Source: Staphylococcus phage vB_StaM_PB50. From it: DNA of 64,000 nt. The notes beneath the pieces were generated by a model. It saw only the letters and a list, made by a program, of their open reading frames with translations, had not been told where the DNA came from and searched no databases. The stretch is from sequence record OR770614.1. One strand, written 5' to 3'. A program made the translations under genes and the position numbers. How positions within the stretch are numbered: the first letter of the stretch is position 1; each line of letters starts with the position of its first letter. This document shows, one piece after another, positions 1,394 through 64,000 of this stretch.

Positions 1394-1909
1394 ATGGCTG
1401 AAATGAAAAATAGTAGAGATGTATTAATCGGAGAAGAAAAAGATATTAGAGATTTACAATTATTAATGAGAATTAGAAATAATATTATGAATTATGTAGA
1501 TGTAGAAAATACAATTGATATTATTCGAGATGTAATTAATGATTCTGAAAACTTTAGCTTTAGATCTAAACAAGCTGAAAAATTTATTGATGTTAAAAAA
1601 CCTGTATTTGTTATTAAATTAGATGATAGTGAACTATCTGCTAAGAATAAACAAAGCTTTGAAGGTAGTGAAAGTGATTATCAAAGTTATATAGATAATT
1701 ATGAAAAAGATGTAGCTGATAAGCTTGATAGAGAAGTTTTAAAATATATAGGTAAAGCTATTTTTGATTCTATTAAAGATGATAGTGAATTAGATAGATT
1801 ATTAAAAGATAATGAGCTAGAAATGAAAGATTTAATGATTACAAATATTTATGTGTATAAATTATCAGATCCTTATACTAATGCAATCAATCTTTCATTA
1901 TTTATTTAA
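1394..1909 (+). CDS. hypothetical protein
   Basis: 171-aa ORF, start overlaps stop of upstream ORF (translational coupling); no motif. Confidence 0.5.
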   Translation: MAEMKNSRDVLIGEEKDIRDLQLLMRIRNNIMNYVDVENTIDIIRDVINDSENFSFRSKQAEKFIDVKKPVFVIKLDDSELSAKNKQSFEGSESDYQSYIDNYEKDVADKLDREVLKYIGKAIFDSIKDDSELDRLLKDNELEMKDLMITNIYVYKLSDPYTNAINLSLFI

Positions 1910-1988
1910 TACATGAATACTATTAAAACTAGTAAAACATTCTCTTATAATAATAAAAATAAGAGCGAAAGTTTGGTGAATATTCATA

Positions 1989-4985
1989 ATGGAAGATAAA
2001 GATAAAAATCTCTTACAAATAAGTGAAGAGATGAATTCTATTAAGTCTAAGATAAATTCTTTAGTTCAAGATCAAGATAGTATTAAGAATTTATCAGAAG
2101 ATAATAAGAATAAGATTAATGTACTTAATGAAAATCTGGATAATATTGATAAAGAAAATGATAACTTAATAGAAAAATTAAGAAATTTAGATGGTAGTCA
2201 TGATATTGATTTAGATCTTTCTAATTATGTTACACTTGATACACTTAAAACAGAATTAAGAAAATATCAAAAATTAAGTATTGACTATATTGATAGATTA
2301 GCTGAAGGTGGTTGGGATTCTGATATTAAAGGTAATTTAGAAAACCTTAATGGCAGAGTCTCAGCTAATGAAGAATCAATTTCTTCAACTATGTCTAAAG
2401 TTAATAAATATGATTCAACTATTCAATACTTAAGCACTAAGGTTGAACAAACAGCTGAGTCTATTAAGAGTATTGCTACTGATTACACACTTAATGAAAT
2501 TAATCAAAGTATTACTAAATTAGAATCATTTAGAGAACAAACAGCTAGAGTTTTACAAGATACAGTTACTAGAGCTGATATAGATACTATGAATAATAAA
2601 GTAACTGAATTTGAAAGTCAAGTATCTCAGTTTGCAGATTTAATAGAACAGACTGTTTCTAAATCAGAAATTGACGGAATTACTATTGGTGGTAAAAACT
2701 TACTAGAAAATTCATTAGCTATTAAAGGTAATTGGTTATTATACCCTGAAAGTTTATCTTCAACTAAAGAGAATGCTTTAACATTTGGTCAAGATAATAA
2801 CGGTAAGAGTTATTTTACTATTAATACCGATGGAATAGAAGGAGAAGTTGGAACTATAAGCTATAATTCTTTCCCTTTAAAATATAATGAAACTTATACT
2901 ATTTCATTTGATTTTAGATCAGATACATTTAATAGACTTGATCATTGTTACTTCATTGATCCTTCAGGTAATTATACTACACCTATTGCTGAAAAATATT
3001 TAGATATTGATGAAGAATGGCATAGATACTCATTTGTATATAAACAAACTTTAACTGGAAGAAATAGTACAAAATTATTAATTGGTGTAGATACTGATTT
3101 AAATCAATTAAATGGTACATTTGATATATCTAGTGTTAAAGTTGAAAGAGGTAGTGTATCATCTGACTGGACTCCTGCTCCAGAAGACTTTGATAATATG
3201 TTAGAGAATTATAATAAAGATATCAATAATAAAATAGATAATATTGAAGAAAATGCTATTGGGTTAGGTGATACTGTTACTGAAGCTTTTAAAGATGGTA
3301 TTATATCTAATGCAGAAAAAATAGCTATTGAAAAGCAAAAGAATATTATTGATAAAGATAAAAAAGAAATAGATCAAATATTTAATTCATTATATGCAAA
3401 TAAAATGATGACAAATAGTGTTAAAACTGAATTGAAAAATAATTATGATTTATTCAATGAAAAATATAATATATTACTACAAGATATAACTAATACAATT
3501 TCAGATGGAATAGCTACTAAAGAAGAAGTAGCTCAATTTAATACAAATTTCTTAAGATATAATGAAGCTCAATCAAATATTAAATCATCTATTCAAAAGG
3601 CAGTAGATAATATTTCTAATGGCTATGCAGTTGATGAAGCTAGTAAAATCACTGTAGGTGGAATGAACTTAGTAAGTTATGAAAATATTTTAGCTATAGG
3701 ATCTGCAACTCTAAATAAGAATACTTATAAAGAGAACGGTGAAATGAATGTAGCTTTAACTGCTAATGGACAAGGTATTAAATTTAAATTAGATAAAGTG
3801 AGAAATAGACGTGAACATGTATTAGGTTTTAATTTAGAAAAGAAAACTGGTACACTTACAAATGTTGATATTAATATTCCTAATGCTTCTGTAACTTCTT
3901 GTTCTGTTAATGGTAATAAAATTGGAAGTGATTCTAGAAGTATTACATTTAACGATACATCATCATTGACATTTATTGAAGTTGTATTTATACCTAATGA
4001 CAGTTTCACAACTAATACTCCTACAGAAATCGTTATTAATCGTAATGGCACATTCCCATTATCTGTAGATGTAGAAGGGTTAAAAGTGGAAGAAGGTAAT
4101 AAAGCTACTGCTTGGCAACCTTCTATTAAAGACAGTAATGCTAGAATTACTAATATGGAAAGTAGAATTAGTCAGAATGAAAAGAATATAGATTTAAGTG
4201 TAACTAAAGAAACGTACAATGCAGATAAATCTAAAATGGAAAAAATGGGATCAGCTTTATCTATTTTAGCAGATGGTATTAGTATGTCATCTTCATCTAA
4301 TGATAAATTGTCTTCTTTTGATATTGATCCTAATAGCATTAAATTAAAATCTAAAATGGTTGATATTAATGATGGCGATGTAATAATTTCTAATGGTAAA
4401 GCTACTATTAAAGAAGCTTCTATTACTAATTTAATGTCTAAAAATATAGTTGTCCAAACTATGTTAGATGCAATGGGTGAAGTTAAAGGTGGTATTACTA
4501 TTAAACGTCCTGATGGAGGTTACTTAGTATATAATGGTATGCCAAGATTTACTACAGCTTATGTGCGTTCTGAACCAGGTGTGCAAGATTTAATGTCTAA
4601 TGGTACTCCTAGATTTAAGAATGTTGGTAATGCATTTATGTTTAGTGATAAGACTACCGGTAAATACTTCAGACGTGCTATGACAATGTATGGTCAACAT
4701 GAAACTAGATGGTTGCATATAGGTATTTGGTATGCTACTCCTCAATGTGGTATTGATATTAAAGTAGATTCATTTAATGACCAAAATGGAGTATTCTTTG
4801 ATAAAACTGTGTCTATACCTAAAGATACGTCAACTAGTGTAACTAAGACAAAACATAAAGAAATTATTGTAGATATGGGTATTCCAGCACAATCTATAGC
4901 TTCTATAGCAATTCGTGCAAGAGTTAAACCTGGTCAAAAAGGTAATGCTTGGATTCTTAACTCATATGTTTATGGTAGAAACTAA
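1989..4985 (+). CDS. tail fibre / receptor-binding protein
   Basis: 998 aa; N-terminal ~230 aa coiled-coil-like with short repeats; two internal ~200-aa lectin/CBM-like repeats each ending in the Firmicute phage tail-fibre motif (VERGSVSSDWTPAPED; VEEGNKATAWQPS); distinct C-terminal head domain. Confidence 0.7.
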   Translation: MEDKDKNLLQISEEMNSIKSKINSLVQDQDSIKNLSEDNKNKINVLNENLDNIDKENDNLIEKLRNLDGSHDIDLDLSNYVTLDTLKTELRKYQKLSIDYIDRLAEGGWDSDIKGNLENLNGRVSANEESISSTMSKVNKYDSTIQYLSTKVEQTAESIKSIATDYTLNEINQSITKLESFREQTARVLQDTVTRADIDTMNNKVTEFESQVSQFADLIEQTVSKSEIDGITIGGKNLLENSLAIKGNWLLYPESLSSTKENALTFGQDNNGKSYFTINTDGIEGEVGTISYNSFPLKYNETYTISFDFRSDTFNRLDHCYFIDPSGNYTTPIAEKYLDIDEEWHRYSFVYKQTLTGRNSTKLLIGVDTDLNQLNGTFDISSVKVERGSVSSDWTPAPEDFDNMLENYNKDINNKIDNIEENAIGLGDTVTEAFKDGIISNAEKIAIEKQKNIIDKDKKEIDQIFNSLYANKMMTNSVKTELKNNYDLFNEKYNILLQDITNTISDGIATKEEVAQFNTNFLRYNEAQSNIKSSIQKAVDNISNGYAVDEASKITVGGMNLVSYENILAIGSATLNKNTYKENGEMNVALTANGQGIKFKLDKVRNRREHVLGFNLEKKTGTLTNVDINIPNASVTSCSVNGNKIGSDSRSITFNDTSSLTFIEVVFIPNDSFTTNTPTEIVINRNGTFPLSVDVEGLKVEEGNKATAWQPSIKDSNARITNMESRISQNEKNIDLSVTKETYNADKSKMEKMGSALSILADGISMSSSSNDKLSSFDIDPNSIKLKSKMVDINDGDVIISNGKATIKEASITNLMSKNIVVQTMLDAMGEVKGGITIKRPDGGYLVYNGMPRFTTAYVRSEPGVQDLMSNGTPRFKNVGNAFMFSDKTTGKYFRRAMTMYGQHETRWLHIGIWYATPQCGIDIKVDSFNDQNGVFFDKTVSIPKDTSTSVTKTKHKEIIVDMGIPAQSIASIAIRARVKPGQKGNAWILNSYVYGRN

Positions 4986-16513: not shown

Positions 16514-16541
16514 AATAATTTTCCTCTTTTCTAATTTATTT

Positions 16542-17015: not shown

Positions 17016-17062
17016 AATAAATTCTCCTTTAATATTTTATTTATTCTATTCAATTATATCAA

Positions 17063-17653
17063 TTACATACCTTCGCCTGGTTCTGGAATTTCACCTCTTG
17101 ATGCTTTCTCATACATCTCTTTTTGCTTTTCATATTCTGCATCCATATCTTCTTCTTCAGAACCACTATGTTTTTCTTCTTCGCTCAATTCATATTTTTT
17201 ATGAAGTTCAGGATTCGCCATTTCAGGTGAAACTGGTTGGAATTTACCTTCTTCAGCTAATCTATTTAGCTCTGGTGTCATTTCATCTGTTGTGGCAATT
17301 CCATCTCCATTCTTATCAGCCTTAATAATTTCTTCTTTTATGCTTTGAGGATCATCTGCTTTTGGTTGGTCACTGTTATCAACTTCTTGAGTATTTTCAA
17401 CATTACTATTAACTTCTGTTGAATCTGAACTTTGTTCTGTTTCTAAAGATTGATTCTCTTCGTTGTTTACTTCTTTGTTATTTTCTTCGTTGTTATTTTT
17501 ATTAGGTTTTTCTTTAACTTCTTGTTTTTGTTCTGTCTTCAGTTCTTTATCATTACTTTTTATATTCTTATATTGACTGTATCCAAATAAAACTGTTACA
17601 CCTAATACCGCTAATAATACTATTACACCTAATACACCTAAAATTTTTTTCAT
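17063..17653 (-). CDS. TM-anchored low-complexity acidic protein (paralog 3 of 3) with EF-hand-like loop
   Basis: N-terminus MKKILGVLGVIVLLAVLGVTVLFGYSQYKN; DKNGDGIATTDE resembles a Ca-binding EF-hand loop. Confidence 0.55.
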   Translation of the reverse strand: MKKILGVLGVIVLLAVLGVTVLFGYSQYKNIKSNDKELKTEQKQEVKEKPNKNNNEENNKEVNNEENQSLETEQSSDSTEVNSNVENTQEVDNSDQPKADDPQSIKEEIIKADKNGDGIATTDEMTPELNRLAEEGKFQPVSPEMANPELHKKYELSEEEKHSGSEEEDMDAEYEKQKEMYEKASRGEIPEPGEGM

Positions 17654-25935: not shown

Positions 25936-26133
25936 CTATTCACTAGCTTTAATATCTACATTTTTTGATTTAGGATTATTTAATAAATAAACAGCTATTT
26001 GTGAGTCTTTATTAAGTGAGTAAGTTCTATTAAACAATCCATCATTATATGAAATTAATTGGTTTACTGGATCTTGTACTTTTAATTGTTCGTATTGTTC
26101 TTCTGAAAATAGTGCTATGATATTTAAAGTATC
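25936..26133 (-). CDS. RNA polymerase beta-prime N-terminal fragment, exon 2
   Basis: DTLNIIALFSEEQYEQLKVQDPVNQLISYNDG...QIAVYLL aligns to bacterial RpoC immediately after the catalytic NADFDGDQMAVHVPL (..LEAQLEAR..NNILSPANGEP..QDVVLGLYY); joins exon 1 to give GADYDG-D. Confidence 0.7.
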   Translation of the reverse strand, partial: DTLNIIALFSEEQYEQLKVQDPVNQLISYNDGLFNRTYSLNKDSQIAVYLLNNPKSKNVDIKASE

Positions 26134-27861
26134 CATTTATCTTAACCTACATTTAATATATAGGATGAGACTATATCTTATGGTTTCCCATTTATATATT
26201 TAGTCGTTGAACCTTATAATTAGGATGCTGATTAGTTTCAAACTGTCCCAGCAATTAATATGATTTATTGAAGGCAATAAATCAATAAATTTTATAATTC
26301 ATTAAAATATTTCCGCTATTCCAAATTCGATAAACACCCGATTGTTTTTTAGGAAAATCTGAGTATTCCATGTTTTCATTAATGTAATTTGGAAAGTATT
26401 CTGGTATAATAGATTTTTCAAATTCATGAACTGAATAAATATTTCTTTTAAAAATTATTTTACATGTAGATTTTAATTCTTTAACATAATTAAAACCAAA
26501 ATCTTTGAAATATTTACCATCAGAATAATCTTTATTTATTATTAAATCTATTGTTTTTATATTGTTTCTTTTGAAATATTTAATTGAATTACTTAATAAT
26601 TTAAATAAACCACCATTTACAATTGTTTTATTACTAAAAGCAAATTTTTCTAATTTAACTTTATTCTTATTTATATAATTATATGACATAATTGCAATTA
26701 TTTCATCATTAATTTTTAATGAAAAATTAATATCATGAGAGGAATTTATATAGGTACTATTATTTTTATAGAAGTTTTTAGCGTCATAATCGTTAATTAT
26801 TTCAAAATTACATTCTCTAGCATTTATTTTCTTTTCTTGAAAATAATCTATAGAATACAATATCCTATTAATTATTAAATCTTTTTTAAACTCGTAATCT
26901 AATGAGTTAATAAAATATATTTCAATATCAAAATTATTTTTAAAAAAATCTTTCTTATGTTTATGATATTCTTTATTTTTCATTTTATCTGAATGATAAT
27001 AGTATCCATTAAATTCAAATCCTATTTTTTTATCTGGAAAGAATAGATCTACTTCATATATTTGATCATTAAAAGAGAATCTTTTGTTATTTAAAATAAT
27101 TCCTTTATATGATTCTTTTATATATTTTATTAATTCAATTTCTTGATTAGATTTAATATTTTTACAAAGAGGACATCTATATCCTTGTTGAAAGTCATTA
27201 ACTCTTACACTATAAATATTACCACATTTTTTATGTTTTATTGGATATTTTTCTTTATTATTGAATTTATAATTTAAATCCAACCATTCATATTCATTAC
27301 CATCTTTAGATTCAGATAATATTTTTATTAAATAATTTTCATCATCTTTATAATAATATTTACCTCTTTTTTTATTTGAACAAAAAGGACATCTTCTTTT
27401 CTTATTTCCCAAAAATAAGCGTGGTTCTACTTTATATTCATTTCCGCATATTTCATGTCTTAATAAAACTTTATCGCTACCATTTTTATTAAAACCTTCT
27501 ATATAAGTATAATCTTTATTTTCTTTTTTAATTTCTTCAAAAAAGTCTTTATCCGATATATTTTTATAATTTCTAGCTTTTTTATTCCCTTCATTTTTAA
27601 AACATTTCGGACATCTTCCTTTTCCTTCATTTAAGAAAATATTACCTTTAGATACTCTATATTCTTCACCACAAATTTTATGTTTTAAAATAAAAGGCTT
27701 TGAAGTTCCCTCATAATTGCTTATTAATTCATAATTATTATTATCTATATTTTTTATTTTGTTTATTACATCTTCTTCTGTTAATTTAGGTGGCATAAAC
27801 TCATCCTTTCAATTAATTATTAAGGAGGTTTATTTAAATTTATTTTTTATTGATAATTTTT
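26134..27861 (-). mobile_element. group I intron in beta-prime gene (HEG-containing), about 1.73 kb
   Basis: last exon-1 nucleotide U, intron ends ..AAAUG; 3' 145 nt contain R (GGUUCAACGACUAAAU) and S (AAGAUAUAGUC) P7 elements homologous to the mini-introns in beta-C; contains 504-aa ORF with own RBS. Confidence 0.7.
26282..27796 (-). CDS. intron-encoded putative homing endonuclease (3 zinc ribbons + Vsr/EDxHD-like PD-(D/E)xK domain)
   Basis: three repeats of C-G-x-x-Y...C-P-x-C zinc ribbons; YEVDLFFPDKKIGFEFNGYYYHS matches the Vsr/DUF559-type nuclease core; GAAAGGATGAG RBS inside intron. Confidence 0.6.
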   Translation of the reverse strand: MPPKLTEEDVINKIKNIDNNNYELISNYEGTSKPFILKHKICGEEYRVSKGNIFLNEGKGRCPKCFKNEGNKKARNYKNISDKDFFEEIKKENKDYTYIEGFNKNGSDKVLLRHEICGNEYKVEPRLFLGNKKRRCPFCSNKKRGKYYYKDDENYLIKILSESKDGNEYEWLDLNYKFNNKEKYPIKHKKCGNIYSVRVNDFQQGYRCPLCKNIKSNQEIELIKYIKESYKGIILNNKRFSFNDQIYEVDLFFPDKKIGFEFNGYYYHSDKMKNKEYHKHKKDFFKNNFDIEIYFINSLDYEFKKDLIINRILYSIDYFQEKKINARECNFEIINDYDAKNFYKNNSTYINSSHDINFSLKINDEIIAIMSYNYINKNKVKLEKFAFSNKTIVNGGLFKLLSNSIKYFKRNNIKTIDLIINKDYSDGKYFKDFGFNYVKELKSTCKIIFKRNIYSVHEFEKSIIPEYFPNYINENMEYSDFPKKQSGVYRIWNSGNILMNYKIY

Positions 27862-28974
27862 ACCATCATAGTCTGCACCCATACCAGCAAGTATATTATT
27901 ACTGATACCTACTACTGATGATTCTATATCTTGAATTATATCTTTAATTTTTAATATTTGAACTGAGCTTTCACTAATACTGGGATTTCTATTTAAAATA
28001 ACTCTCATTCCATTTTCAGTTTTATCAACTAGTTCTCTCATATATTTATATACTTTAGGATTAAATGTATCTAATGCTCTGTCTAATATTTCTTCACCTT
28101 TAGCTAAAGGAATATTTTCTGTTACATACATTAAATTTGCTAAGATAGGTTTATATACTTCTAAGAAGATGGTATAATTTAATCTAATTTCATTTAATTT
28201 AAGGTCAGGTGCTGGAACAATTACTGAACGTGCAGAGAAACCAACACGACTACCCATTAGTAATTTACGAATAGTTCCACCTTTACCTTTAATATTCTCA
28301 TTAATTACACGATCACTAATATTAATACTATCATCTTGAATTTTACTTAATAGATTTAATTTTTGTAACTCTACTGAATCATCTGTATAATGTCTATCAA
28401 GTTCTTTAATACTATTACTATGAGCAATTAATAAATTATAATCTTTATTAATTTCAGAATGTCTAAAAGTTTTAGTAGCTTTATTAACTGTAGCAGGTCT
28501 TAATTTAGGACTAAATACAGTTACATAATTTTGGAATAGTAAATCAGATAAATACCATTGTACTACTCTATTGTAATCTTTAGTTTTACGTTTTTCACGT
28601 TTAACTTCTTCTTTAAGAATTTTTAAGAAATTCTTTCTAAATTCAATTAAACCAATATAAGAGTTATGATCATCTTCAGGTTCAATTACATTACCATTTT
28701 CATCAATAGGTTTTTCAGAACTAATAATTTCTTGGAATCTTTTATTACCAATTAATTTTTTAACACGTTCATAACCTAACGGATTTAAAATATAATTATT
28801 ACCTAAATCTACAATAGCTTCATTAGTAATATTATCTGCTTCTGAATCAGGACCGAAGATTTTCTCACTGAAGATACCATCTTCAGTGAAATCACCTTTC
28901 TTATCAATTGATTCATGATTAGTTACAACTGGAACATTTTCTAAATCCTTTTTCTTGAGTAAAAATCTAACCAT
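27862..28974 (-). CDS. RNA polymerase beta-prime N-terminal fragment, exon 1
   Basis: GIFSEKIFGP (cf. GLFCERIFGP), VFSPKLRPATV (cf. PPDLRP), GKGGTIRKLLMGSRVGFSARSVIVPAP (cf. [23 protein letters not shown]), NRNPSISESSVQ (cf. NRAPTLHRLGIQ), ends ILAGMGADYDG (cf. NADFDGD); ORF track read-through KNYQ-stop is intronic. Confidence 0.8.
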
Positions 28975-28977
28975 AAC

Positions 28978-30600
28978 TTAATCTTCTCCTTCTTCTACAA
29001 TTTCTTTAATGTCCATAATAACTTCCTGATCATCATTTTCTTTCTCTAATTTATCAATATTTTCAATATCTTCAATTTCTTTGATATTAGGTTTATTTTC
29101 AAAATAGAATGAACCATTCTCACCAGGATCTTTAACTTCACAGAATGGAGTTAACGTACGAGTAATACCTGGATTATTTGATGAAGTAGCAATCAAATCA
29201 ATTCTACCGAAATAAGTGTTATTGATATTGATTGTTCTAATAGATGGTTTACTAGTGTCTACAGCTGATTGTGGACCTGCTTTAGTCATTTTAAGAATTC
29301 TAGTAAATAAATCAATTGTATTAACTGCATTAGAATAACGTATACCATCAGAAGTTCCAATAGTTTTCAATAGATAATCTCTAGGTACTCCTGAGAATAA
29401 ACCTTTAAGGTTTTTAATAGTACGTTTTTTATCTGAGAAGTTAATCATACGGTAAGATGTATCAGAATTTTTTCTATTCAGTGGATAAGTTAAGTATTCT
29501 AATACTCTTAATCGTTTATTAGCTAAATCTGTATTATCTAATAAGTTAAGATTATCAAAGTTCTTAAACATGTATTTAACCACATGATAAGTTGATTCTT
29601 TATCTTCTTTTTCTAATCGTGATATAGCTTGAGTACGACTATCTAATATACGATCAAATGAAAGTATCATTGAATTCGCTTTATCTATTTTAGTGTCAAT
29701 ATTAGTTGAACCACTGAAGATAGAACCTAAAGCCTTTAACCAGAATTCTCTATCGTATATTTTATCTAATCCAGCTCTCATTCCTTTGAATAAATCTTTA
29801 ATACAAAGGATCATAGAATTTCTATAACGATCATCAACATCTAACCATTCTTTTTCAACTTTTAAAGAAAGTTTATTATTAATTTTAAAGTAATAGTAAT
29901 TATCTTCTTTATCATCATTAATATCTATTACTTCACAATGGTCTTTAATTTCTAAAAATTCAAATGTTTCGTCAAATCCCATTTTTGCAACAAAGAACAT
30001 AAATGCTGGAACACTCTTATTTTTATTGAACACTTCTAGATATAGAGTTCTCCCTCTTTGGAAATTAGACATCTTATTATCGTCATCCATAATAGTGTCT
30101 TTTTTAGAACCATTGACTGATAGTGGTTGCAATAAGTTTTTCATTACTACAGTACTAGCTTTTGGTTTATAAAATTCAGCATCAGCTAATTGTAGAATTG
30201 GGAAAAATTTGTTATTATTGATATAGTAGTATTGACCTTCAATAAGTTCAGGGAAATCTAATTTGTGTGTATATTCTTCTTTATTACCTTCTGAATCTTC
30301 AAATTCTACTGTAATTTGAACTTCCAGTAATTTAGATTCTTCAACATTGATTTTTCTATAATCTTTAGATTTAAGTTGTTTATCTGTCATTTGATTATAT
30401 TCATAAACCTGACTTGGTGAAACAACTTTACAATCTAAGAATTTAATTCCTTTAATAAATTCTACTGATCGATAAATATCTGAAATGATTTTTTCTAAAC
30501 TTTCATTTTGTCTGAAATAAATTACGTCTTCGTTAAATGGTTCTTTTTTGCTAATGTCTTCGTTGATGTTCTTTGTAACTTTACTTAAGTATTTACTCAA
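28978..30600 (-). CDS. RNA polymerase beta N-terminal fragment
   Basis: 540 aa, TTG start after GGAGAGTG RBS; ANKRLRVLEY (cf. HKRRISALG) and IRTININNTYFGRIDLIATSSNNPGI (cf. [27 protein letters not shown]); stop overlaps start of beta-prime-N. Confidence 0.75.
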   Translation of the reverse strand: MSKYLSKVTKNINEDISKKEPFNEDVIYFRQNESLEKIISDIYRSVEFIKGIKFLDCKVVSPSQVYEYNQMTDKQLKSKDYRKINVEESKLLEVQITVEFEDSEGNKEEYTHKLDFPELIEGQYYYINNNKFFPILQLADAEFYKPKASTVVMKNLLQPLSVNGSKKDTIMDDDNKMSNFQRGRTLYLEVFNKNKSVPAFMFFVAKMGFDETFEFLEIKDHCEVIDINDDKEDNYYYFKINNKLSLKVEKEWLDVDDRYRNSMILCIKDLFKGMRAGLDKIYDREFWLKALGSIFSGSTNIDTKIDKANSMILSFDRILDSRTQAISRLEKEDKESTYHVVKYMFKNFDNLNLLDNTDLANKRLRVLEYLTYPLNRKNSDTSYRMINFSDKKRTIKNLKGLFSGVPRDYLLKTIGTSDGIRYSNAVNTIDLFTRILKMTKAGPQSAVDTSKPSIRTININNTYFGRIDLIATSSNNPGITRTLTPFCEVKDPGENGSFYFENKPNIKEIEDIENIDKLEKENDDQEVIMDIKEIVEEGED

Positions 30601-30710: not shown

Positions 30711-30783
30711 TTAGAAAAAAGCTAGGAAAATAATTAAATTTTTCTAAATTTTTTAAAAATAAATGAAAGAAAGGAAACTAAAA

Positions 30784-31095
30784 ATGAATAGACAAATTCA
30801 AGATCAAAAACATTTCTTCCGTGAATGGTCTAAACGAACTGGTTTATCTCAAAGAGAATTAGTAGATGCTTATTCAGAAATGATTGATATTTTAGTTGAA
30901 TCAGCTAATGATTCAGATCAAACTAAAACTATTATTCCTGAAATCGGTGTTTTAGAAGTTAAACCTGAAGATATGCGTAAACGTAGAAATCCAAGAACTA
31001 ATCAAATTGTAGTTACTGAACCTACACGTAAAGCACACATTCGTTTATACCCTAGACTTAAAAATAGATTTAAACCGGATGAATTAGAGAAATAA
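30784..31095 (+). CDS. HU/IHF-family DNA-binding protein
   Basis: IGVLEVKPEDMRKRRNPRTNQIVVTEPTRKAHIRLYPRLKNRF matches the HU beta-arm signature (GFGxF..R..R.GRNPxTGe.i.I.a....F..gk.LK); AGGAAA RBS favours ATG at 30784 over ORF-track 30763; lone plus-strand gene. Confidence 0.75.
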   Translation: MNRQIQDQKHFFREWSKRTGLSQRELVDAYSEMIDILVESANDSDQTKTIIPEIGVLEVKPEDMRKRRNPRTNQIVVTEPTRKAHIRLYPRLKNRFKPDELEK

Positions 31096-31454: not shown

Positions 31455-31838
31455 TTAATCTTTATAGTCTGGTTTAGCTGGAATCCACATTTTAGGATTG
31501 TAATTAATTTCATACTGATATTTGCTAACATTCTTAGTTGTTACATCTTCGACAGTATATGAAACATTATCAGATAAACCAATGATGTGTTTTTGGTATT
31601 TACCATCTTCATTTTCTACAACTATTTCTAACTGGTTATCTTCTTTATCCGCTTTAATAGACATGCGTCCAGACATCTGAAAAATAATATCGTTCTTAAT
31701 AGCATTTATGACAGTTACTTTTCTAACCACATTAAAATTATCTGACTCTTCAGACATATTTTGACTAACCTTATCTGCTTGAGAGCACCCTGCTAATAAT
31801 AAAACTAATAATAATGGTAATACTAAAAATTTCTTCAT
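31455..31838 (-). CDS. lipoprotein
   Basis: MKKFLVLPLLLVLLLAGCSQ signal peptide with lipobox; AAAGGAGAAAAC RBS; promoter cassette upstream. Confidence 0.6.
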   Translation of the reverse strand: MKKFLVLPLLLVLLLAGCSQADKVSQNMSEESDNFNVVRKVTVINAIKNDIIFQMSGRMSIKADKEDNQLEIVVENEDGKYQKHIIGLSDNVSYTVEDVTTKNVSKYQYEINYNPKMWIPAKPDYKD

Positions 31839-33681: not shown

Positions 33682-34131
33682 TTACTTAAATGAATCTTTT
33701 ACCATAATATTTTTATACTGTTTCTCTGTTATTTCATCAAAGTGTTCCATATACAAATTATGATTTAAAAAATTAATATTAAATCTTGGCATAGTCATTA
33801 CTGTATTTACTTCATTATTAATAATTAAATCTACATGAATTAAAGATTTAGCATCTTCATATTTTCTATTAACAAATACTATTGGATTATTCTCTATTTC
33901 ATGATTAACTTTTTCAGTTAGACTTTCAAATCCAAGTTTAGGGTAAATATCTTTGTTTTTCATTTTATTAATTTCATCTAATGTAAAACAAAAATCTGCA
34001 CCATTGCAATATTTGACAATGAAGTTTTTATTTTTTATGTCTTTTTTAATAAGTGGGGTTTTAAGTCCAGGCATAACATCTAAACCTAAAAATTTAATAT
34101 AACCATCTTTATTTAATCTATAATATTTCAT
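33682..34131 (-). CDS. MKYYK/KExFK-tail paralog family protein (tandem array 1/5)
   Basis: MKYYRLNKDGYIKFLGLD...EITEKQYKNIMVKDSFK. Confidence 0.6.
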   Translation of the reverse strand: MKYYRLNKDGYIKFLGLDVMPGLKTPLIKKDIKNKNFIVKYCNGADFCFTLDEINKMKNKDIYPKLGFESLTEKVNHEIENNPIVFVNRKYEDAKSLIHVDLIINNEVNTVMTMPRFNINFLNHNLYMEHFDEITEKQYKNIMVKDSFK

Positions 34132-34145
34132 ATTATAAAACCTCT

Positions 34146-34616
34146 TTATTTAAAAATTTCTTTAATTTTATTAGCTTTATATTCCTTTTCAGTTATTTTT
34201 ATATAATCTTCATTAATTATTAATTCCATTTTATTAATACCTTCTAAATTGAATGTAAATTTATCGTTATATCCATGATTTCTTATATTATCATATATTT
34301 CATTCAAAGTTTCTTCACCGGTTAAATGCATGCTATTTTCCCATATTGCATAACTTTTAAGATCAATCCAGTAATTCACGTACGTGTTTTCTTCTTCATC
34401 TCTTAAAAAATTAGTTTCTATTTTTATAGGAAAATCTTTAATTAAATCAATTAATATAATTTCTTCATCTTCTTTTACATATAAAGATTCTAATAATTCA
34501 ATATCTTTACCGTCTTTCTTAAGATACCAATTTCTTTCCATTAATTGAGAATATACATCAGGATCAATAAATAAAATTTTAGATATTCCACTTTGGGTCA
34601 TTTTATAATATTTCAT
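34146..34616 (-). CDS. MKYYK/KExFK-tail paralog family protein (2/5)
   Basis: MKYYKMTQSGISKILFID...KITEKEYKANKIKEIFK. Confidence 0.6.
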   Translation of the reverse strand: MKYYKMTQSGISKILFIDPDVYSQLMERNWYLKKDGKDIELLESLYVKEDEEIILIDLIKDFPIKIETNFLRDEEENTYVNYWIDLKSYAIWENSMHLTGEETLNEIYDNIRNHGYNDKFTFNLEGINKMELIINEDYIKITEKEYKANKIKEIFK

Positions 34617-34634
34617 TTTATATCTACTCCTTTT

Positions 34635-35087
34635 TTATTTAAAAGTTTCTTTGACCTTTAGATCTTTATACTCTTTTTCGGATACTTCTTCATAGTCAAT
34701 CCCTTCTGAGAGACTATATACACCTTCCTTTAATTTTTCAATTGAAAATTTTGTTTTAGATATTTTTTTATTTATTTTGTTATATATTTTTAATAAAGAA
34801 CTATTTTCATTCATTTTCATATTACTAACTTTACATATATGAAATTCTTCTTCTCCAATAAATACATACATATAACCATCTACATACATTTTTTCCTTTG
34901 GTCCTTTTCGAACACTATATTCTATACTTGGTGTTTTGTTTTCAATAATTTCTGATATACTAATTTCTTCATCTTCTCTTAAATAAAGATCTTCTTTTCT
35001 GAATAAATTATTGTAACAGTATACCATTTCACTATTAATACCTAAAATTTCAGACATTCCATATTGATTTATTTTATAATATTTCAT
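34635..35087 (-). CDS. MKYYK/KExFK-tail paralog family protein (3/5)
   Basis: MKYYKINQYGMSEILGIN...EVSEKEYKDLKVKETFK. Confidence 0.6.
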   Translation of the reverse strand: MKYYKINQYGMSEILGINSEMVYCYNNLFRKEDLYLREDEEISISEIIENKTPSIEYSVRKGPKEKMYVDGYMYVFIGEEEFHICKVSNMKMNENSSLLKIYNKINKKISKTKFSIEKLKEGVYSLSEGIDYEEVSEKEYKDLKVKETFK

Positions 35088-35103
35088 AATTTATTTCTCC
35101 TTT

Positions 35104-35535
35104 TTATTTAAAACTTTCTTTGATTTTATTATCTTTATATTCTTTTTCAGTAATTTCTACATATTGGATATTCTCTTTTAAATCATAAATTTCTTTATCT
35201 CTGCTAAAAATAAAATCTTTATTAAAAACTAAATCTTCTGCATGTTTATGAACTTCTTCAAGTGTATGATGTTTAAAATTATCTAAAATAATCTCTACAC
35301 TATTCGTTAAATATCCGCCTTTCATTTCTAAGTGAGCATCCATAGTTAAAGGTCTATTTGAATTTGTAAAGACGTTGAAATTAAGCTTTAAATTATCTTG
35401 ATCTTTAATCAAGTAACGTGTTTTAATGACTTCATTTTCTTCAAAACAAAAATTTTGTTTAAGATTATCATAACCACCACCATAAGTTTCTAAAATTTGA
35501 ACTACACCATCATTTATTAATTTATAATATTTCAT
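35104..35535 (-). CDS. MKYYK/KExFK-tail paralog family protein (4/5)
   Basis: ORF-track N-terminal 25 aa read through a 13-bp hairpin ATCCCAATACCTA/TAGGTATTGGGAT; AAAAGGAGATAT RBS precedes MKYYKLINDGVVQIL; ends EITEKEYKDNKIKESFK. Confidence 0.55.
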   Translation of the reverse strand: MKYYKLINDGVVQILETYGGGYDNLKQNFCFEENEVIKTRYLIKDQDNLKLNFNVFTNSNRPLTMDAHLEMKGGYLTNSVEIILDNFKHHTLEEVHKHAEDLVFNKDFIFSRDKEIYDLKENIQYVEITEKEYKDNKIKESFK

Positions 35536-35626
35536 TTTATAATATATCTCCTTTTTATTTATATAATAAAATATCCCAATACCTATTAATTTAGGTATTG
35601 GGATTATCATAATTTATTTCTCCTCT

Positions 35627-36076
35627 TTATTTAAAGTTTTCTTTAACTTTATTTTGATAGTATTCTTTTTTAGATATTTCAATATAATGAATATCCTTCA
35701 ATAATTTAACTCCAATTTTTTCAAAATTAGTGAATGAAAATACATCATTCACTAATTTTCTTTTAATGATTTTAAATAATTCATTATCACACATTTTAGT
35801 ATCTTTTAAATTAATATTAATGCTATAAAGCATAGGAATATCATTATCTTTTTTATCTATAATTAAACAAGCTTTTCCTTTTTCATAACCTTTGTTAGAA
35901 ATATCAATTGAATTAACTTTTTCATCATAATCTTTTTCTATAAAATTGTAAAAAGGAATTTCTTCATCTTCTGTTAGATAAATATATCCACTTTTAAATA
36001 TATCAATAATATTGTTGGATCCATGTATACCTAATACTTCTGACATTCCTTTTTTATTAAGTTTATAATATTTCAT
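35627..36076 (-). CDS. MKYYK/KExFK-tail paralog family protein (5/5)
   Basis: MKYYKLNKKGMSEVLGIHG...EISKKEYYQNKVKENFK. Confidence 0.6.
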   Translation of the reverse strand: MKYYKLNKKGMSEVLGIHGSNNIIDIFKSGYIYLTEDEEIPFYNFIEKDYDEKVNSIDISNKGYEKGKACLIIDKKDNDIPMLYSININLKDTKMCDNELFKIIKRKLVNDVFSFTNFEKIGVKLLKDIHYIEISKKEYYQNKVKENFK

Positions 36077-38073: not shown

Positions 38074-38781
38074 TTATTTCTCTCCTTTAATATATAGATT
38101 TGTATAGTGATTATTTAATTTATTTCCATCTTTTCTACGTATATATGTTGCATATACTTCTTTATTTAAGAAATTTTCTAGTACTAATTTTTTAATTAAG
38201 AATAAAGGATTTTCTTTATAATTTGATATATTAACATAAGGTTCTTCACCTATAAAATTGATAGGTAATAATTTATTCGTGTTTGTATTTTTAACTCTTC
38301 CATAGCTACTTAATATAAAATTATCATAACATTTAATATTAGTCCATTCTTCATTATTTTCATCGTATATTAATTCTTTATTCAAATTATTTAAAACACC
38401 TTTAATTCTTCTAATTGATGTGTGGTTATTAATATTAAATTTATCAGATAATTGTTCTTTATCATTGTTTTTTAAAAGTATCTTAATCTCTTCTATATCT
38501 TTAATAGAATATTTTCTTATAGGTGTATATTCTAAATTATCTTTATGAACATTTAATGAATTCCCATCTTTGTAATGTAAATGTTTATAATTATTTTGAT
38601 TATCTAAAAATGTTTCAGCTACTATTCTATCAACTCTTTGTAATTTTCTACCATTCATATTAAAATGTAAATGGTTATTAACTGGAAAAATACTTACATA
38701 AATATCTTCGTATTCATTGTATATATTACCTTTTTCACTAATTATATACCTTTCATCTTTTGGGTATTGTTTCCATTTCAT
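38074..38781 (-). CDS. HNH homing-type endonuclease (NUMOD4 + HNH_3)
   Basis: N-terminal W..P...YIISEKGNIYN (NUMOD4-like), HLHYKDGNSLNVHKDNLEY (H-x-D-G-N..N..N-L HNH core), second NUMOD4-like WTNIKCYDNFILSSYGRVKN; immediately upstream of ligase. Confidence 0.6.
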   Translation of the reverse strand: MKWKQYPKDERYIISEKGNIYNEYEDIYVSIFPVNNHLHFNMNGRKLQRVDRIVAETFLDNQNNYKHLHYKDGNSLNVHKDNLEYTPIRKYSIKDIEEIKILLKNNDKEQLSDKFNINNHTSIRRIKGVLNNLNKELIYDENNEEWTNIKCYDNFILSSYGRVKNTNTNKLLPINFIGEEPYVNISNYKENPLFLIKKLVLENFLNKEVYATYIRRKDGNKLNNHYTNLYIKGEK

Positions 38782-41789: not shown

Positions 41790-41804
41790 AAAATTTATCT
41801 CCTT

Positions 41805-45236: not shown

Positions 45237-45305
45237 AATAAAAGTAATGATGAAATTAATCATCATTACTTTTATTATATTTATTTTGAATCTTCTTTAA
45301 TTTCT
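45237..45305. repeat. direct repeat copy B
   Basis: see copy A; includes the genuine 3' end (..KEDSK-stop) of beta-C. Confidence 0.65.
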
Positions 45306-45673
45306 TTAACTAGATTATTTATTTCTCTAGGTGATAAATCTTTAATATCATCTACATTTTCGAATTTTTCCATTAAGAACTCTAATTGATCTGGAGAAAG
45401 ATCCATAATTGAATGAAGATCTTCTTCTCCTGCTTTATTATAATCAATACTAACATTTAGTGGACTAAAGTAAGCATTAAGTACTTTAGTGTTATTATTT
45501 TGATATCTCTTTTCAAATGAAGTATTTAATTTAAACGGATTACCTGTATATAACTCTACTAATAGACGTTTTCTTAAGTCTTCATTATTAGAGTACATAT
45601 TAGTTAATTCATTAATAGCTTTGATAGATCCACCGATCATCATGTTAGTTGTTTCCATCTCACCGCAGTTATT
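45281..45673 (-). CDS. RNA polymerase beta C-terminal fragment, exon 4
   Basis: exon begins NNCGEMETTNMMIGGSIKAINEL (cf. RpoB ..GGQRFGEMEVWALEAYGAA..); ORF-track Met at 45658 is internal. Confidence 0.6.
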   Translation of the reverse strand, partial: NNCGEMETTNMMIGGSIKAINELTNMYSNNEDLRKRLLVELYTGNPFKLNTSFEKRYQNNNTKVLNAYFSPLNVSIDYNKAGEEDLHSIMDLSPDQLEFLMEKFENVDDIKDLSPREINNLVKEIKEDSK

Positions 45674-45833
45674 CTAAATATTATTATTTAGCTAGACTAT
45701 ATCATTACCATTTAAGGTAGAATATATTTAGTCGTTGAACACTAATTAAAGTGATGCCGATTAGTTTAATACTCTTCTCAGCAATTAATATTCTTTACAT
45801 TTATACATTTCTATATAACGGAGCCTTTATTTG
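45674..45833 (-). mobile_element. compact ORF-less group I intron (about 160 nt), beta-C intron 3
   Basis: 5' exon ends ..CUCAGAGU with IGS GCUC 12 nt inside intron (G.U at splice site); R GUUCAACGACUAAAU and S AAUGAUAUAGUCU; ends ..AUUUAG. Confidence 0.65.
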
Positions 45834-46491
45834 ACTCTGAGAGGATTGTTGTTTATTCTTGATCTATAGAACTTAGAATCGGGTGTTCGTGTGGGAATAC
45901 CACTGTAATTATTAAAGTCAATTGATTTTGCACTTAATTTCCCACTAGGCTCGTGTTTTAACTTCAGGTGATACAAATCTCCAACCATAAATGTTCTATT
46001 ACTAACATCTAGTCGGTTTTTCTTAATATTGTATTTATTGAATAAGTATCTGATTTGTTCAGATTCAATATTATCAAAGAAAGGTGCTTGATGAAGTACA
46101 ATACCATTTTTAATAAAGTCTTCAATAGCTTCTTTAGTCTCTTCATTATCTAAACTATCAAATAATTTTACATAATTATCATAAGATACTTTATCTGCAT
46201 CTTTGATATATTCTAATAAATATTCTTTCTGCTTATTAACATCATCTAACTTACTAATACGATGTCTAATAACGCTTGAAATATGATTTAATTCTAATTC
46301 AACTAATGCTGAAGGATTTCCTCTATTAATAATACCCATATTATTATGAATTAAGTCTACTCTTTTCTTAATAGGGGTTTTATTATCTTTTGTGAAATCT
46401 TCTCCATCAAATTCAGTAATCATTGGCATTTCATTATCTGGAACAATCTTAGCTACTACACCTTTTCCACCGTACCTTGTGCTTATTTTTG
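45834..46491 (-). CDS. RNA polymerase beta C-terminal fragment, exon 3
   Basis: (G)SKISTRYGGKGVVAKIVPDNEMPM...DLIHNNMGIINRGNPSALVE (cf. [41 protein letters not shown]) and FMVGDLYHLKLKHEPSGKLSAKS (cf. [20 protein letters not shown]). Confidence 0.75.
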
Positions 46492-46675
46492 CATTTGTGT
46501 TAATGAACTTCATATACTTTACTAAGAAGATCAGACTATATCATTACCTTCATATAAGGTAGAATATATTTAGTCGTTGAACACTATTTATAGTGATGCT
46601 GATTAATTTTATAATTCTCAGCAATTAATATTCTTTACATATAAATTTTCATTCATAAGGGACCTATTAATTTGA
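46492..46675 (-). mobile_element. compact ORF-less group I intron (about 184 nt), beta-C intron 2
   Basis: 5' exon ends ..CACGGAU, IGS GUCC in AAUAGGUCC; R/S elements; 3' end ..ACAAAUG; splicing joins PLVHG-SKISTRYGGKG. Confidence 0.65.
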
Positions 46676-47242
46676 TCCGTGCACTAAAGGTTTCTTCTCT
46701 AATACTTTAACTCTAAATACGATTTTATCAAATTGATTTCCATCATATACAAGTTTAGCATTAGGATCAATGTAGCTCTTAAATCTATTATAAGTTCTAA
46801 TTAAATCATTACTAAATTTCTTCTTGCGTACAATATCATCAGTAACAGTTACAAATGTACGATAGAAGTGTTCTAAATCTTTGATATATTTTAAGAATTG
46901 CTCTGAGTACTTTTCATTCTCTAATTTTTCAATTGATTCATTATTAAGTACATCAATATCAATAATTTTACCATGTACCTTGTATGCATTATCACTTTCA
47001 ACAATTTTAGATAACATATCATTTTTAAATTTATGAATTAATTCGTCATAGTTTAGTCGTCTTGTTGCTGTTAATACACCATCTTTAATTTCTTCTCCAA
47101 CATCTGGAAATGCTTTATAACTTTCTTCATCACCATAAATATTTAAAGGAATATCATTTGTATTTATAGTTACATTAACTACATGAACGAAATAACTTGA
47201 CATTTTCTCAGCTAATGATTCTGATACAACAATACCATCTTC
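46676..47242 (-). CDS. RNA polymerase beta C-terminal fragment, exon 2
   Basis: begins EDGIVVSESLAEK.. (cf. FEDSILVSERV..), ends IVFRVKVLEKKPLVHG(S) (cf. IVKVYLAVKRRIQPGDK); ORF-track Met at 47203 is internal. Confidence 0.7.
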
Positions 47243-47403
47243 CTATAGGTTATAATTAATAAAATTATACCATAGACTATATCATTACCGTTTAAGGTAG
47301 AATATATTTAGTCGTTGAACACTGTTTTTAGTGATGCTGATTAATTTAATAACATCTCAGCAATTAATATTCTTTACATACATAAATTTCTTTATGCAGG
47401 AAC
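47243..47403 (-). mobile_element. compact ORF-less group I intron (about 161 nt), beta-C intron 1
   Basis: R/S elements and P6/P8-like hairpins as in introns 2 and 3; ends ..CCUAUAG giving in-frame stop TAG just before exon 2; exact 5' splice site uncertain (+/- few nt). Confidence 0.55.
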
Positions 47404-47943
47404 AAAGTTAATTTTATTCGTAAATCCTTTATCTGGTAAAAATACTGAAGTAGCGTTTGTACCATATTGGAAATTATTTGATTCTTCATCATAGTTTTGA
47501 TCTTTATAAAGTACTTCATTTTTATCAACAGTACTACCAATTTCTAAAGAATCAATTTTTTCATTTTGATATTTATTACCGAACTTCTCAGCTAAATGAT
47601 TAGCTTCTTCTCTAATAATAATATCATACTCATCATTATCTTTATACTTCACTAAATAGTATTTTACATATTTATTCTTTTCAAATATAAAAATAACTTC
47701 AAAATCTCTTTCAGCTTTCTTATAACCAGTTGAATATTTACCCACTTGATTCTCAAAACCAGTTTGAATTAATGGAGGTTCAGCTTCAGTTAATTGAATA
47801 CATTGACCTATATGTGAAGTGAACATTTGTGATCTATTACCATTAGTTCTATTAACATTAGGCATTAATAGTAGTTCCGATAAAAATTCATGACTTTTCT
47901 TATCTTCAATCTCTTGCATTCTTTGTGTTCTTTCCTTTGTCAT
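47404..47943 (-). CDS. RNA polymerase beta C-terminal fragment, exon 1
   Basis: GGAGAGTG RBS; LLLMPNVNRTNGNRSQM..PLIQTGFEN (cf. LMGANMQRQAVPLL.PLVGTGME) and GTNATSVFLPDKGFTNKINF (cf. GQNMRVAFMPWNGYNFEDS). Confidence 0.75.
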
Positions 47944-62389: not shown

Positions 62390-62650
62390 TTATTCTTCTT
62401 CTTGATCATAATCAGGTCTAGTATCTTTAAGTAAATCTGAATCAATACCAGCACCTAATAAATAATAGTAAGTAGTATTCAAAGTAGTTTTATCAGAAAG
62501 ATCATCAGGTAGATCTTCTAGACGAGTATAACCATACATTGAAATGTTTTTATTCATTTCCTGTTTAGCATTCATAGAGTCTGAACGTGGTCCCATTAAT
62601 TCTCTTAATATATCTTGAGACCCAATTGCTCTTAATGCAGAAGCTTCCAT
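62390..62650 (-). CDS. RNA polymerase beta-prime C-terminal end, last exon
   Basis: SVSNMEASALRAIGSQDILRELMG aligns to RpoC C-terminal conserved block (..[22 protein letters not shown]..); exon start approximate (about 62650-62670), preceded by intron core. Confidence 0.5.
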   Translation of the reverse strand: MEASALRAIGSQDILRELMGPRSDSMNAKQEMNKNISMYGYTRLEDLPDDLSDKTTLNTTYYYLLGAGIDSDLLKDTRPDYDQEEE

Positions 62651-62659
62651 ATTTGATAC

Positions 62660-64000
62660 GCTTGCAACCTTGTCCGAACCTGAAAGTTGCGGTTATCCTA
62701 TATATTTCTATATAAGCCAGACTATATCTTAATCCCAGAGGGATCATTCCTGTTTCGATTTAAAGGGTTCTCACCTACTTTTATTTATAAAAGCCCTACT
62801 CCTATTGCGAAATTTCATCGCTTAAAGGATAGTCGTTGAACCAATTTATTAGTATTTTGTCTATTTTTTGCATTTCATAAAAGTTTATACGAAGTAAAGG
62901 TATTTCTCTTTCTTTACAAAAATTATTTTTTAATTCATCTCTTTTATTTATATCTTTATCTCTAAACATACTTTTTCTATGATTATTATTGTGTTGTCTT
63001 CCATCGAACTCTATTAAAGTATTATTTCCTGATACATAGAAATCAAATCTCAAGCTTTTTTTGTATTTTAAATCAGGAAATGTTTTTTCTTTAATATAAT
63101 CTATATTATTTTTTTCTAGAAATTTGATTATGTTTTTTTCTCCTCTAGAATATGTGTTCCCTAAACGTCTGTCTTTACGACACATAGGACAACCAGGCAT
63201 TTCATATATCCATCTAGGTTGTTTATAAAAAGTATGATTACATTTCACACATTTGAATTTATTTTTAGATGTATTTGTTTTATATTCATCCAGACATATT
63301 ATATCTCCATTAAACAAATTAGACAGCCTTTCTTCAAATTCTTCATGTGTTATAATTTTAAATTTAGGGGGATTACATACAGGACAACTATCACTTTTTC
63401 TTTTTCTTAGTTGTGATATGCTATTTTCAAATTCATGTCCGCATCTTTTATCTCTCATCACTATTTTAGAATTTATATTTTTGTAATCTCCACTCACATA
63501 CTCTTTATGATAAATATTTAATTTCTCGTTTATAGTATTAAAATTAGATTTTTTTAAACTTCTCTTTTTAATACCGCAATGTGGACATACTTTCCCTACT
63601 TTTATTTTTTCAAATGTTCTTTGGAATTCTTTATTACATTTTAAACATACAAAATCCATTTTAGTTTTTGTATTTACATATTCTTTAGATAATAAGATAC
63701 ATTTATTTTTTACTTCTTCTTTTACATCTTCAATACTAAAAAATTTTCTAGACATTATTAATCTCTCCCAATTTTATATTATAAAAAATAGTTAACTGGG
63801 TTAGATAAAATTGCTAATAAAATTGGTGCTGATTTCCCATTATTTCAATACTTAGGACTCTTAAAAAGAGCTTTTATTTCACCATATATCATCTCACTAC
63901 TTGTTTCTACTTTCGTTCCATTTAGGCAAGTGAGCTTTAGGGAGTTCCAGCTTTAAAGGAATTTATTCGACACTATATTGCTATAGTAGAAGGGGCCAAG
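62660..64000 (-). mobile_element. group I intron with HEG in beta-prime-C gene (5' end and upstream exon beyond window)
   Basis: R UGGUUCAACGACUAUCC and S UUAAGAUAUAGUCUGGC between HEG stop and exon; GC-rich structured 5' part at 63760-64000; ORF 62565..62747 is an intronic artefact. Confidence 0.55.
62802..63755 (-). CDS. intron-encoded putative homing endonuclease (3 zinc ribbons + Vsr/DUF559-like domain)
   Basis: three C-x2-C...C-P-x-C ribbons; LRFDFYVSGNNTLIEFDGRQHNNNHRK matches Vsr/DUF559 core (..VEVDGxxxH); GGGAGAGATTAATA RBS; paralog of 26282..27796. Confidence 0.6.
   Translation of the reverse strand: MSRKFFSIEDVKEEVKNKCILLSKEYVNTKTKMDFVCLKCNKEFQRTFEKIKVGKVCPHCGIKKRSLKKSNFNTINEKLNIYHKEYVSGDYKNINSKIVMRDKRCGHEFENSISQLRKRKSDSCPVCNPPKFKIITHEEFEERLSNLFNGDIICLDEYKTNTSKNKFKCVKCNHTFYKQPRWIYEMPGCPMCRKDRRLGNTYSRGEKNIIKFLEKNNIDYIKEKTFPDLKYKKSLRFDFYVSGNNTLIEFDGRQHNNNHRKSMFRDKDINKRDELKNNFCKEREIPLLRINFYEMQKIDKILINWFNDYPLSDEISQ

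Follow-up and report, generated by a model that had tools for sequence, protein, structure and literature searches.

The closest described systems to the genes considered here are the non-virion RNA polymerase (nvRNAP) of Bacillus phage AR9 (gp105, gp089, gp270, gp154, and gp226; PDB 7S00, 7S01, 7UM0, and 7UM1) and that of phage phiKZ (gp55, gp68, gp71-73, gp74, and gp123; PDB 7OGP), an RNA polymerase (RNAP) of the same split class that has neither alpha nor omega. In AR9, activity independent of sigma and of the host RNAP is a known biochemical property, and late promoters are recognized in the template strand, which contains uracil; the DNA of phiKZ contains thymine, and this phage has a phage nucleus (PMC7598289). 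According to Korn et al. (bioRxiv 10.1101/2020.12.14.422802), the mature mRNAs and coding sequences of AR9 were determined experimentally, and the same set of genes, in unchanged order, has already been annotated in the Staphylococcus phages Machias, AH12, MarsHill, Madawaska, S6, and PALS_2 as nvRNAP beta-N, beta'-N, and beta-C (with introns) together with a viral RNAP beta subunit (bioRxiv 10.1101/2020.12.14.422802). Here, we analyzed a 64,000-nucleotide (nt) stretch of DNA, the window, and focused on two adjacent minus-strand genes at positions 27847-30600. With a probability of roughly 0.93, these are the N-terminal halves of the beta-like and beta'-like nvRNAP subunits (beta-N and beta'-N) of the AR9/PBS1-like phage PB50, with beta'-N split by an endonuclease-bearing group I intron and with a separate gene for the C-terminal part of the beta-like subunit (beta-C) that needs three introns removed. 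Published work on relatives covers the nvRNAP and its split architecture, its occurrence in jumbo phages of Staphylococcus, and the abundance of introns in its genes, and the PB50 genome has been deposited, so the polymerase system as such is already known. The sequence is that of an AR9-like jumbo phage equipped with a transcription machinery of its own, as published for its close relatives.

Source of the window and the beta-N/beta'-N gene pair

The endonuclease encoded at the beta'-N locus and both beta' open reading frames (ORFs) are 100% identical to WPH64175.1, WPH64176.1, and WPH64174.1 of Staphylococcus jumbo phage vB_StaM_PB50 (genome of 273,701 bp), and the window therefore comes from PB50 or an identical genome. 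In DNA and protein searches of a phage collection, all close relatives were Staphylococcus jumbo phages, with Machias and AH12 the nearest. More specifically, beta-N shares 99.6% and 98.5% amino acid identity with its Machias and AH12 counterparts, 83-85% with those of MarsHill, Madawaska, S6, PALS_2, UFV_DC4, LY01, and SA1, and 28-35% with those of Listeria phage LPJP1, the Bacillus AR9/PBS1 group, and Yersinia phage phiR1-37. The spliced beta'-N product is 99.8% identical to the Machias protein. An IMG/VR scan for beta'-N relatives found none, and a literature search on PB50 returned nothing relevant.

The two genes lie head to tail on the minus strand, inside a long minus-strand gene block of ~23% G+C: the beta-N ORF occupies 28978..30600 (540 amino acids, TTG start; homologous to AR9 gp105) and the first beta' ORF 27847..28974 (375 amino acids). 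The original prediction had described the stop of the former as overlapping the start of the latter, a detail that has to be corrected, since the sequence reads TAA GTT ATG and thus leaves a 3-nt spacer. Its broader claims, namely that N-terminal RpoB-like and RpoC-like halves are adjacent here and that they belong to a split multisubunit RNAP of the AR9/phiKZ type found in jumbo phages, are borne out by matches to chains of the AR9 nvRNAP (7S00_c at 6e-73 for beta-N and 7S00_d at 2e-70 for spliced beta'-N) and of phiKZ, and by the assignment of the window to a 273.7-kb Staphylococcus jumbo phage.

The match of beta-N to the beta-subunit chain c of PDB entry 7S00 spans residues 18-516, and beta-N also matches PHROG 2943 (5.6e-41). 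A profile built from six members of the beta-N family supported the homology to AR9 gp105 at 6.5e-223 and reached phiKZ gp123 (PDB 7OGP_E) at 3e-5; when it was searched against the PDB, only phage chains from AR9 and phiKZ were reached. In addition, AR9 g105 is annotated as "non-virion RNAP subunit, beta subunit N-terminus", and the Machias homologue is labeled "non-viral RNA polymerase beta subunit, N-terminal". A GR-x6-T-x5-PG motif was recognized in beta-N by eye only.

Two observations concern the surroundings of this gene pair. A 110-amino-acid ORF at 30763..31095 on the plus strand, the counterpart of a Machias "DNA-binding protein", is oriented divergently to beta-N; within the minus-strand block at 6-64 kb, no other plus-strand ORF of 100 amino acids or more lacks a larger minus-strand ORF overlapping it. 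In the 160-bp spacer between the two genes, TGATATAATATT is similar to an extended -10 element. The early-promoter consensus of MarsHill, TATATTAT, had 62 matches in the AT-rich window against 48 +/- 6 expected (5 of 100 shuffles were as high) and was thus not clearly enriched. At 31455-31838 (minus strand), a 127-amino-acid ORF with a lipoprotein-type signal (LLLAGC) marks a variable spot beside the RNAP operon: Machias has a 401-amino-acid transposase there (CPT_Machias_283), and AH12 has the 127-amino-acid gene.

A predicted group I intron in the beta' catalytic loop

The 375-amino-acid beta' ORF matched Pfam RNA_pol_Rpb1_2 with 33.4 bits (cut-off of 25.3) over model positions 1-144 of 166 only, and PHROG 2987 (3e-44) only up to position 424 of 478; its product is therefore truncated at the C-terminus. 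Uninterrupted beta'-N proteins of 436 amino acids are encoded by MarsHill, PALS_2, and SA1, and the ORF is colinear with them as far as ...GADYDG, after which it diverges into KNYQ and a stop ("ADYDGKNYQ*") because the intron begins after DYDG. The missing part resides in a 66-amino-acid ORF at 25936..26136, which carries D-TLNIIALF... through the C-terminus. Accordingly, exon 1 covers 27862..28974 (371 codons), and exon 2, with the third Asp, 65 further residues (...KASE), and the stop codon, covers 25936..26133, both on the minus strand. The conserved protein is obtained only if the 5' splice site follows GGT (27862) and the 3' splice site follows ...AAATG (26134), and these sites place the interruption between the Gly codon and the third Asp codon of the Mg-binding loop, GADYDG|D. 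Since stop codons follow exon 1, an intein at this site was ruled out.

Joining the exons produces a 436-amino-acid protein without frameshifts. Its match to AR9 chain 7S00_d is continuous across the junction (GADYDGDTLNII versus GDYDGDVLNII; the exon-spanning stretch is GADYDGDTLNIIALF), cellular beta' subunits are matched at up to 3e-13, and the Pfam Rpb1_2 score rises to 43.8 bits. The metal-binding loop GADYDGD aligns with AR9 GDYDGD, and its D-x-D-G-D motif is intact only after the exons have been joined. In the original prediction, the ORF had been correctly recognized as the N-terminal part of an RpoC-type subunit, but as one that runs through the DxDGD loop and has its natural end there; the ORF leaves the conserved sequence at DYDG, and the third Asp is in exon 2. 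The same site is interrupted in AR9: g270 (KU878088), annotated as a non-virion RNAP subunit, is a two-piece join with an HNH endonuclease inside (g271, 185 amino acids), and its DNA has the intron at the identical DYDG|D boundary, GACGGT|...AAATG|GAC. A candidate position for the AR9 intron ~8 codons farther downstream, taken from the end of a tblastn alignment, was rejected, as the alignment had run into the intron.

The insert of 1,728 nt (26134..27861, minus strand), with U at position -1 and a terminal G, is predicted to be a self-splicing group I intron. The 148 nt located 3' of the endonuclease stop codon hold a core (UUAAUUGCUG...AUCAGCAUC...GUUCAACGACUAAAU...GAUAUAGUCU) that is common to three short inserts in beta-C and to many inserts in the RNAP genes of Machias, AH12, MarsHill, and LY01. 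We aligned 19 distinct copies and assessed covariation in the proposed helices P3, P4, P6, P7 (pseudoknotted with P3), and P8. In the 19 copies, 97.2% of the cells were paired, versus 27-48% when the partners were slid by 1-3 columns, and 11 pairs, most of them in P3 and P8, had changes on both sides; values as high as those observed occurred in 0 of 500 shuffles. P7 and most of P4 are invariant and hence uninformative in this respect. A covariance model built from this Staphylococcus intron family (R1) identified full cores at four places in the window, namely 26168-26267, 45694-45797, 46533-46637, and 47274-47376 (88-114 bits), along with one partial match in an intron at 62.7 kb. The first of these is the minus-strand core of the beta'-N intron (P3-P4-P5-P6-P7-P8-P7'; 88.1 bits, E of 9e-15).

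In all four introns of the window, both Machias beta'-N introns, and the LY01 intron, the last exon nucleotide is U and the intron itself ends in G. In every ORF-less intron examined, the end of the exon is paired with a 5-6-bp guide located at intron positions 8-11, with a U.G pair at the splice site, and the guide covaries with the exon (GGAU/GUCC, GAGU/GCUC, GAAU/GUUC, GGGU/GCCU, and CGAU/GUCG).

The intron contains an ORF at 26282..27796 (minus strand) with its own Shine-Dalgarno sequence. Its product of 504 amino acids appears to be a Hef-like homing endonuclease with zinc-finger repeats and a VSR/DUF559-like "FEFNGYYYH" region. It matched PHROG 559 ("HNH endonuclease", 3.8e-60) and PHROG 3339 ("homing endonuclease", 2.6e-23); in Pfam, only DUF4379, a treble-clef zinc finger, passed, and a PDB search revealed no relative. 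The nearest annotated relative is an AR9 "Hef-like homing endonuclease" (29.7% identity), and the identical PB50 protein WPH64175.1 is annotated as "homing endonuclease".

Endonuclease-mediated gene splitting occurs in T4-like phages, and it is conceivable that beta'-N is truly made as two polypeptides of 375 and 66 amino acids, separated by a free-standing endonuclease gene without any splicing. The PB50 GenBank record does present this region as three separate coding sequences (CDSs), and an ATG directly precedes the exon-2 reading frame. We nevertheless consider such an arrangement very improbable. That ATG is the last three nt of the intron, and a complete group I core ends with its G exactly at the exon-2 boundary. 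Moreover, a break inside the three-Asp Mg-binding loop, with additional KNYQ and Met residues, is hard to square with catalysis, the AR9 annotation joins the exons at this very position, and the same intron family restores the reading frame precisely three times in beta-C.

The beta-C gene, the virion polymerase exon, and the standing of the split nvRNAP

The proposal that beta-C is a separate gene at 45.3-47.9 kb was confirmed once its ORF fragments had been joined. Using tblastn with the uninterrupted PALS_2 protein, junction reading, and in-frame joining, we delimited four exons on the minus strand at 47416..47943, 46675..47242, 45834..46491, and 45281..45665 (stop included). The three introns between them have no ORF: intron 1 (47243..47415, 173 nt, R1 score of 110.8 bits) has the internal guide sequence (IGS) UUGUUC at nt 11 and a U.G pair at the splice site, intron 2 (46492..46674, 183 nt, 107.5 bits) has AGGUCC at nt 10, and intron 3 (45666..45833, 168 nt, 114.4 bits) has AGGCUC at nt 8. 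The spliced product of 712 amino acids is in frame and colinear with the PALS_2 homologue. It matched AR9 7S00_C at an E of 5e-137, phiKZ gp71 (7OGP_C) at 5e-19, cellular RpoB down to 1e-15, and Pfam Rpb2_6 with 37.8 bits (cut-off of 23.4). Machias and MarsHill annotate a multi-exon "non-viral RNA polymerase beta subunit, C-terminal", and the number of beta-C introns is three in PB50, five in Machias, and three in MarsHill.

Part of a gene of a second RNAP is located near the end of the window. The gene at 62.4 kb had been taken for the C-terminal part of beta' (beta'-C), an assignment that we reject: the ORF at 62390..62650 has an RpoB-type C-terminus ("NMEASALRAIGS..."/NMEASALRAIGSQDILRELMGPRSD...) with a weak Rpb2_7 match, the exon is 100% identical to the end of the Machias "viral RNA polymerase beta subunit", and AR9 g078 is an annotated virion RNAP subunit interrupted by a VSR-type endonuclease intron. 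We therefore delimit 62390..62689 (minus strand) as the last exon of a virion-RNAP beta-like subunit homologous to AR9 gp078, the junction being placed by analogy with Machias. Upstream of it, 62690..64000 (minus strand) would be the 3' part of an endonuclease-bearing intron within which the window ends; the same arrangement is annotated in MarsHill. This intron hosts a 317-amino-acid endonuclease ORF at 62802..63755 (minus strand; Pfam DUF4379, DUF2726, and a weak DUF559). Since the J6/7-P7 element (CAACGACUA; GGUUCAACGACUA) overlaps the last codons of this ORF, the ORF is placed in the P6 loop, unlike the ORF of the beta'-N intron.

Virion and non-virion enzymes both consist of split beta/beta' homologues, and with a virion-RNAP exon in the same window, beta-N and beta'-N could in principle belong to the virion-packaged set. 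That assignment is even harder to credit than an unspliced beta'-N, given that the AR9 nvRNAP chains (7S00) are matched far better than anything else, that g105 and g270 are annotated "non-virion RNAP subunit", and that Machias and MarsHill label the homologues of both genes as non-viral (non-virion) subunits. Least probable of all is that the interrupted beta'-N, with its in-frame stop after DYDG-KNYQ, is a decaying pseudogene in a phage relying on another polymerase, because its exons are free of frameshifts and encode a protein with 99.8% identity to that of Machias, its intron has an intact core, and each related genome has a single place that matches beta'-N.

Several points weigh against the reading of this locus as a split nvRNAP with an intron-interrupted beta'-N. 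A Pfam search with the 540-amino-acid beta-N returned no family at an E of up to 1 and thus no RpoB/Rpb2 domain; the beta identity of beta-N therefore rests on the solved AR9 and phiKZ complexes. The original prediction had named RpoB/RpoC hits in profile searches as its decisive check. Such hits exist in Pfam for beta'-N and beta-C, and their absence for beta-N is outweighed by the AR9 chain and by the profile match to phiKZ gp123. The Rfam group I model (RF00028 and relatives) had no hit in the whole window at the gathering score or in the Machias beta'-N locus, scanned as a proxy at an E of up to 10, and the structure was therefore derived by hand and tested by covariation. The splicing of beta'-N in PB50 is predicted, and the IGS of its intron is ambiguous, being either UGCCA, which overlaps the endonuclease start codon, or UUGCC (26277-26273). 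The latter is located just after the endonuclease ORF and ten bases before P3, a layout like that of a related Machias intron without P2, and as the guide it would put the endonuclease ORF in the P1 loop. Finally, by synteny with the full Machias annotation, the window contains neither beta'-C (gp154-like) nor the fifth subunit (gp226-like or phiKZ gp68-like), both of which Korn et al. (bioRxiv 10.1101/2020.12.14.422802) report in MarsHill-like phages.

Of the four polypeptides that make up the core of an AR9-type nvRNAP, three are encoded in the window, and two of their genes give full-length proteins only after the removal of introns (one and three, respectively). By analogy with AR9 and phiKZ (PMC7598289; PDB 7S00 and 7OGP), beta-N, beta-C, beta'-N, and the beta'-C encoded outside the window would assemble into a four-polypeptide core without alpha and omega. 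The fifth, gp226/gp68-like subunit would confer promoter specificity and direct the enzyme to late promoters, and the enzyme would transcribe late genes without sigma or the host RNAP. The nvRNAP genes themselves would probably be transcribed early by the injected virion RNAP, whose beta-like subunit has its last exon at 62.4-62.7 kb. The general biology of such elements suggests that the endonuclease may cleave the conserved sequence coding for the active site in alleles that lack the intron and thereby promote homing of the intron into them.

Other features of the window include several families of paralogues on the minus strand. Three tandem paralogous ORFs at 16085-17653 (142, 157, and 196 amino acids) have an N-terminal transmembrane helix and long low-complexity tails rich in E, Q, N, and K, and they coincide with a local rise in G+C (0.30) and an extreme AT skew (-0.33). 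A tandem array of five paralogous ORFs of ~150 amino acids occupies 33682-36076 (blastp identity of 26-33%, E down to 1e-12), and a separate pair of paralogues of ~183 amino acids is found at 41232-42353 (34% identity, E of 2e-29); all of these are "hypothetical proteins" in Machias. At 38074-38781 (minus strand), a 235-amino-acid ORF corresponding to a Machias "HNH endonuclease" is directly upstream of the counterpart of a 663-amino-acid "NAD-dependent DNA ligase" (36078-38069, minus strand). This endonuclease looks free-standing, and the R1 model finds no core there. A tRNA search of the window found none.

Comparison with known polymerases and introns

The beta'-N gene has no intron in six relatives (MarsHill, Madawaska, PALS_2, S6, UFV_DC4, and SA1), and the catalytic-loop codons are interrupted differently in Machias and AH12. 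Machias (MW349128, locus 2799-3166) and AH12 (locus ~6123-6490) have two ORF-less group I introns in beta'-N, at GMG|AD|YDGD. In Machias, these introns of 182 and 180 nt flank a 6-nt exon, GCCGAT (Ala-Asp), and each has its own guide and U.G pair. LY01 (OR836606, locus 1468-1713) has a single ORF-less intron of the same family at a different beta'-N site, NR|NPS of the conserved ILNRNPS motif, and its record shows two "hypothetical proteins". Among Staphylococcus phages with exons >99% identical, one 18-bp stretch hosts either a single endonuclease-bearing intron (PB50) or two ORF-less introns (Machias and AH12).

A 6-nt exon between two phage group I introns, together with mutually exclusive configurations that destroy each other's homing sites, may be undescribed; a literature search for phage "mini-exon" introns found nothing relevant. 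As read from genome comparison, the one mildly new observation would be that introns take alternative configurations within an 18-bp stretch coding for the active site. We tentatively raise the possibility, which we regard as somewhat unlikely, that introns and endonucleases keep turning over at the beta' catalytic-loop codons of AR9-like phages, which would make these codons a hot spot.

The practical value of these results lies in annotation. Because their introns were not joined, the beta'-N proteins of PB50, Machias, and AH12 have been deposited in truncated form and without the third catalytic Asp; indeed, the annotated CDSs of Machias (1701..2822) and AH12 read on into intron 1. Any expression or modeling of these polymerases needs the spliced 436-amino-acid beta'-N. 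In addition, compact introns with clear covariation that are invisible to Rfam could improve intron detection in AT-rich phage genomes.

The introns described here share several features with known phage group I introns (T4 td/nrdB, SPO1, Twort orf142, and AR9), namely the U.G pair at the 5' splice site, the terminal G, the P3-P9 core, insertion where the coding sequence of an essential enzyme is best conserved, and a peripheral loop that may or may not hold an endonuclease ORF. They differ in that the cores of the window are very compact (168-183 nt without an ORF), AT-rich, and below the RF00028 thresholds, and in that the beta'-N intron has its ORF in the P1 or P2 region, ahead of the entire P3-P9 core, and not in P6 or P8. 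Even at the shared DYDG|D site, PB50 and AR9 have unrelated endonucleases and cores: the endonuclease is a 504-amino-acid Hef-like protein in PB50 and the 185-amino-acid HNH protein g271 in AR9, and the AR9 core scores only 17 bits with the Staphylococcus intron model and is not recognized.

As for the polymerase, beta-N, beta'-N, and beta-C of PB50 follow the AR9 split with full-length matches, yet the nvRNAP polypeptides of the two phages share only 33-37% amino acid identity. PhiKZ is much more distant from PB50 than AR9 is, with gp71 reached at 5e-19 and gp123 at 3e-5, the latter through the family profile. The arrangement of the genes differs as well, in that beta-N and beta'-N are adjacent in PB50 and far apart in AR9 (g105 and g270).

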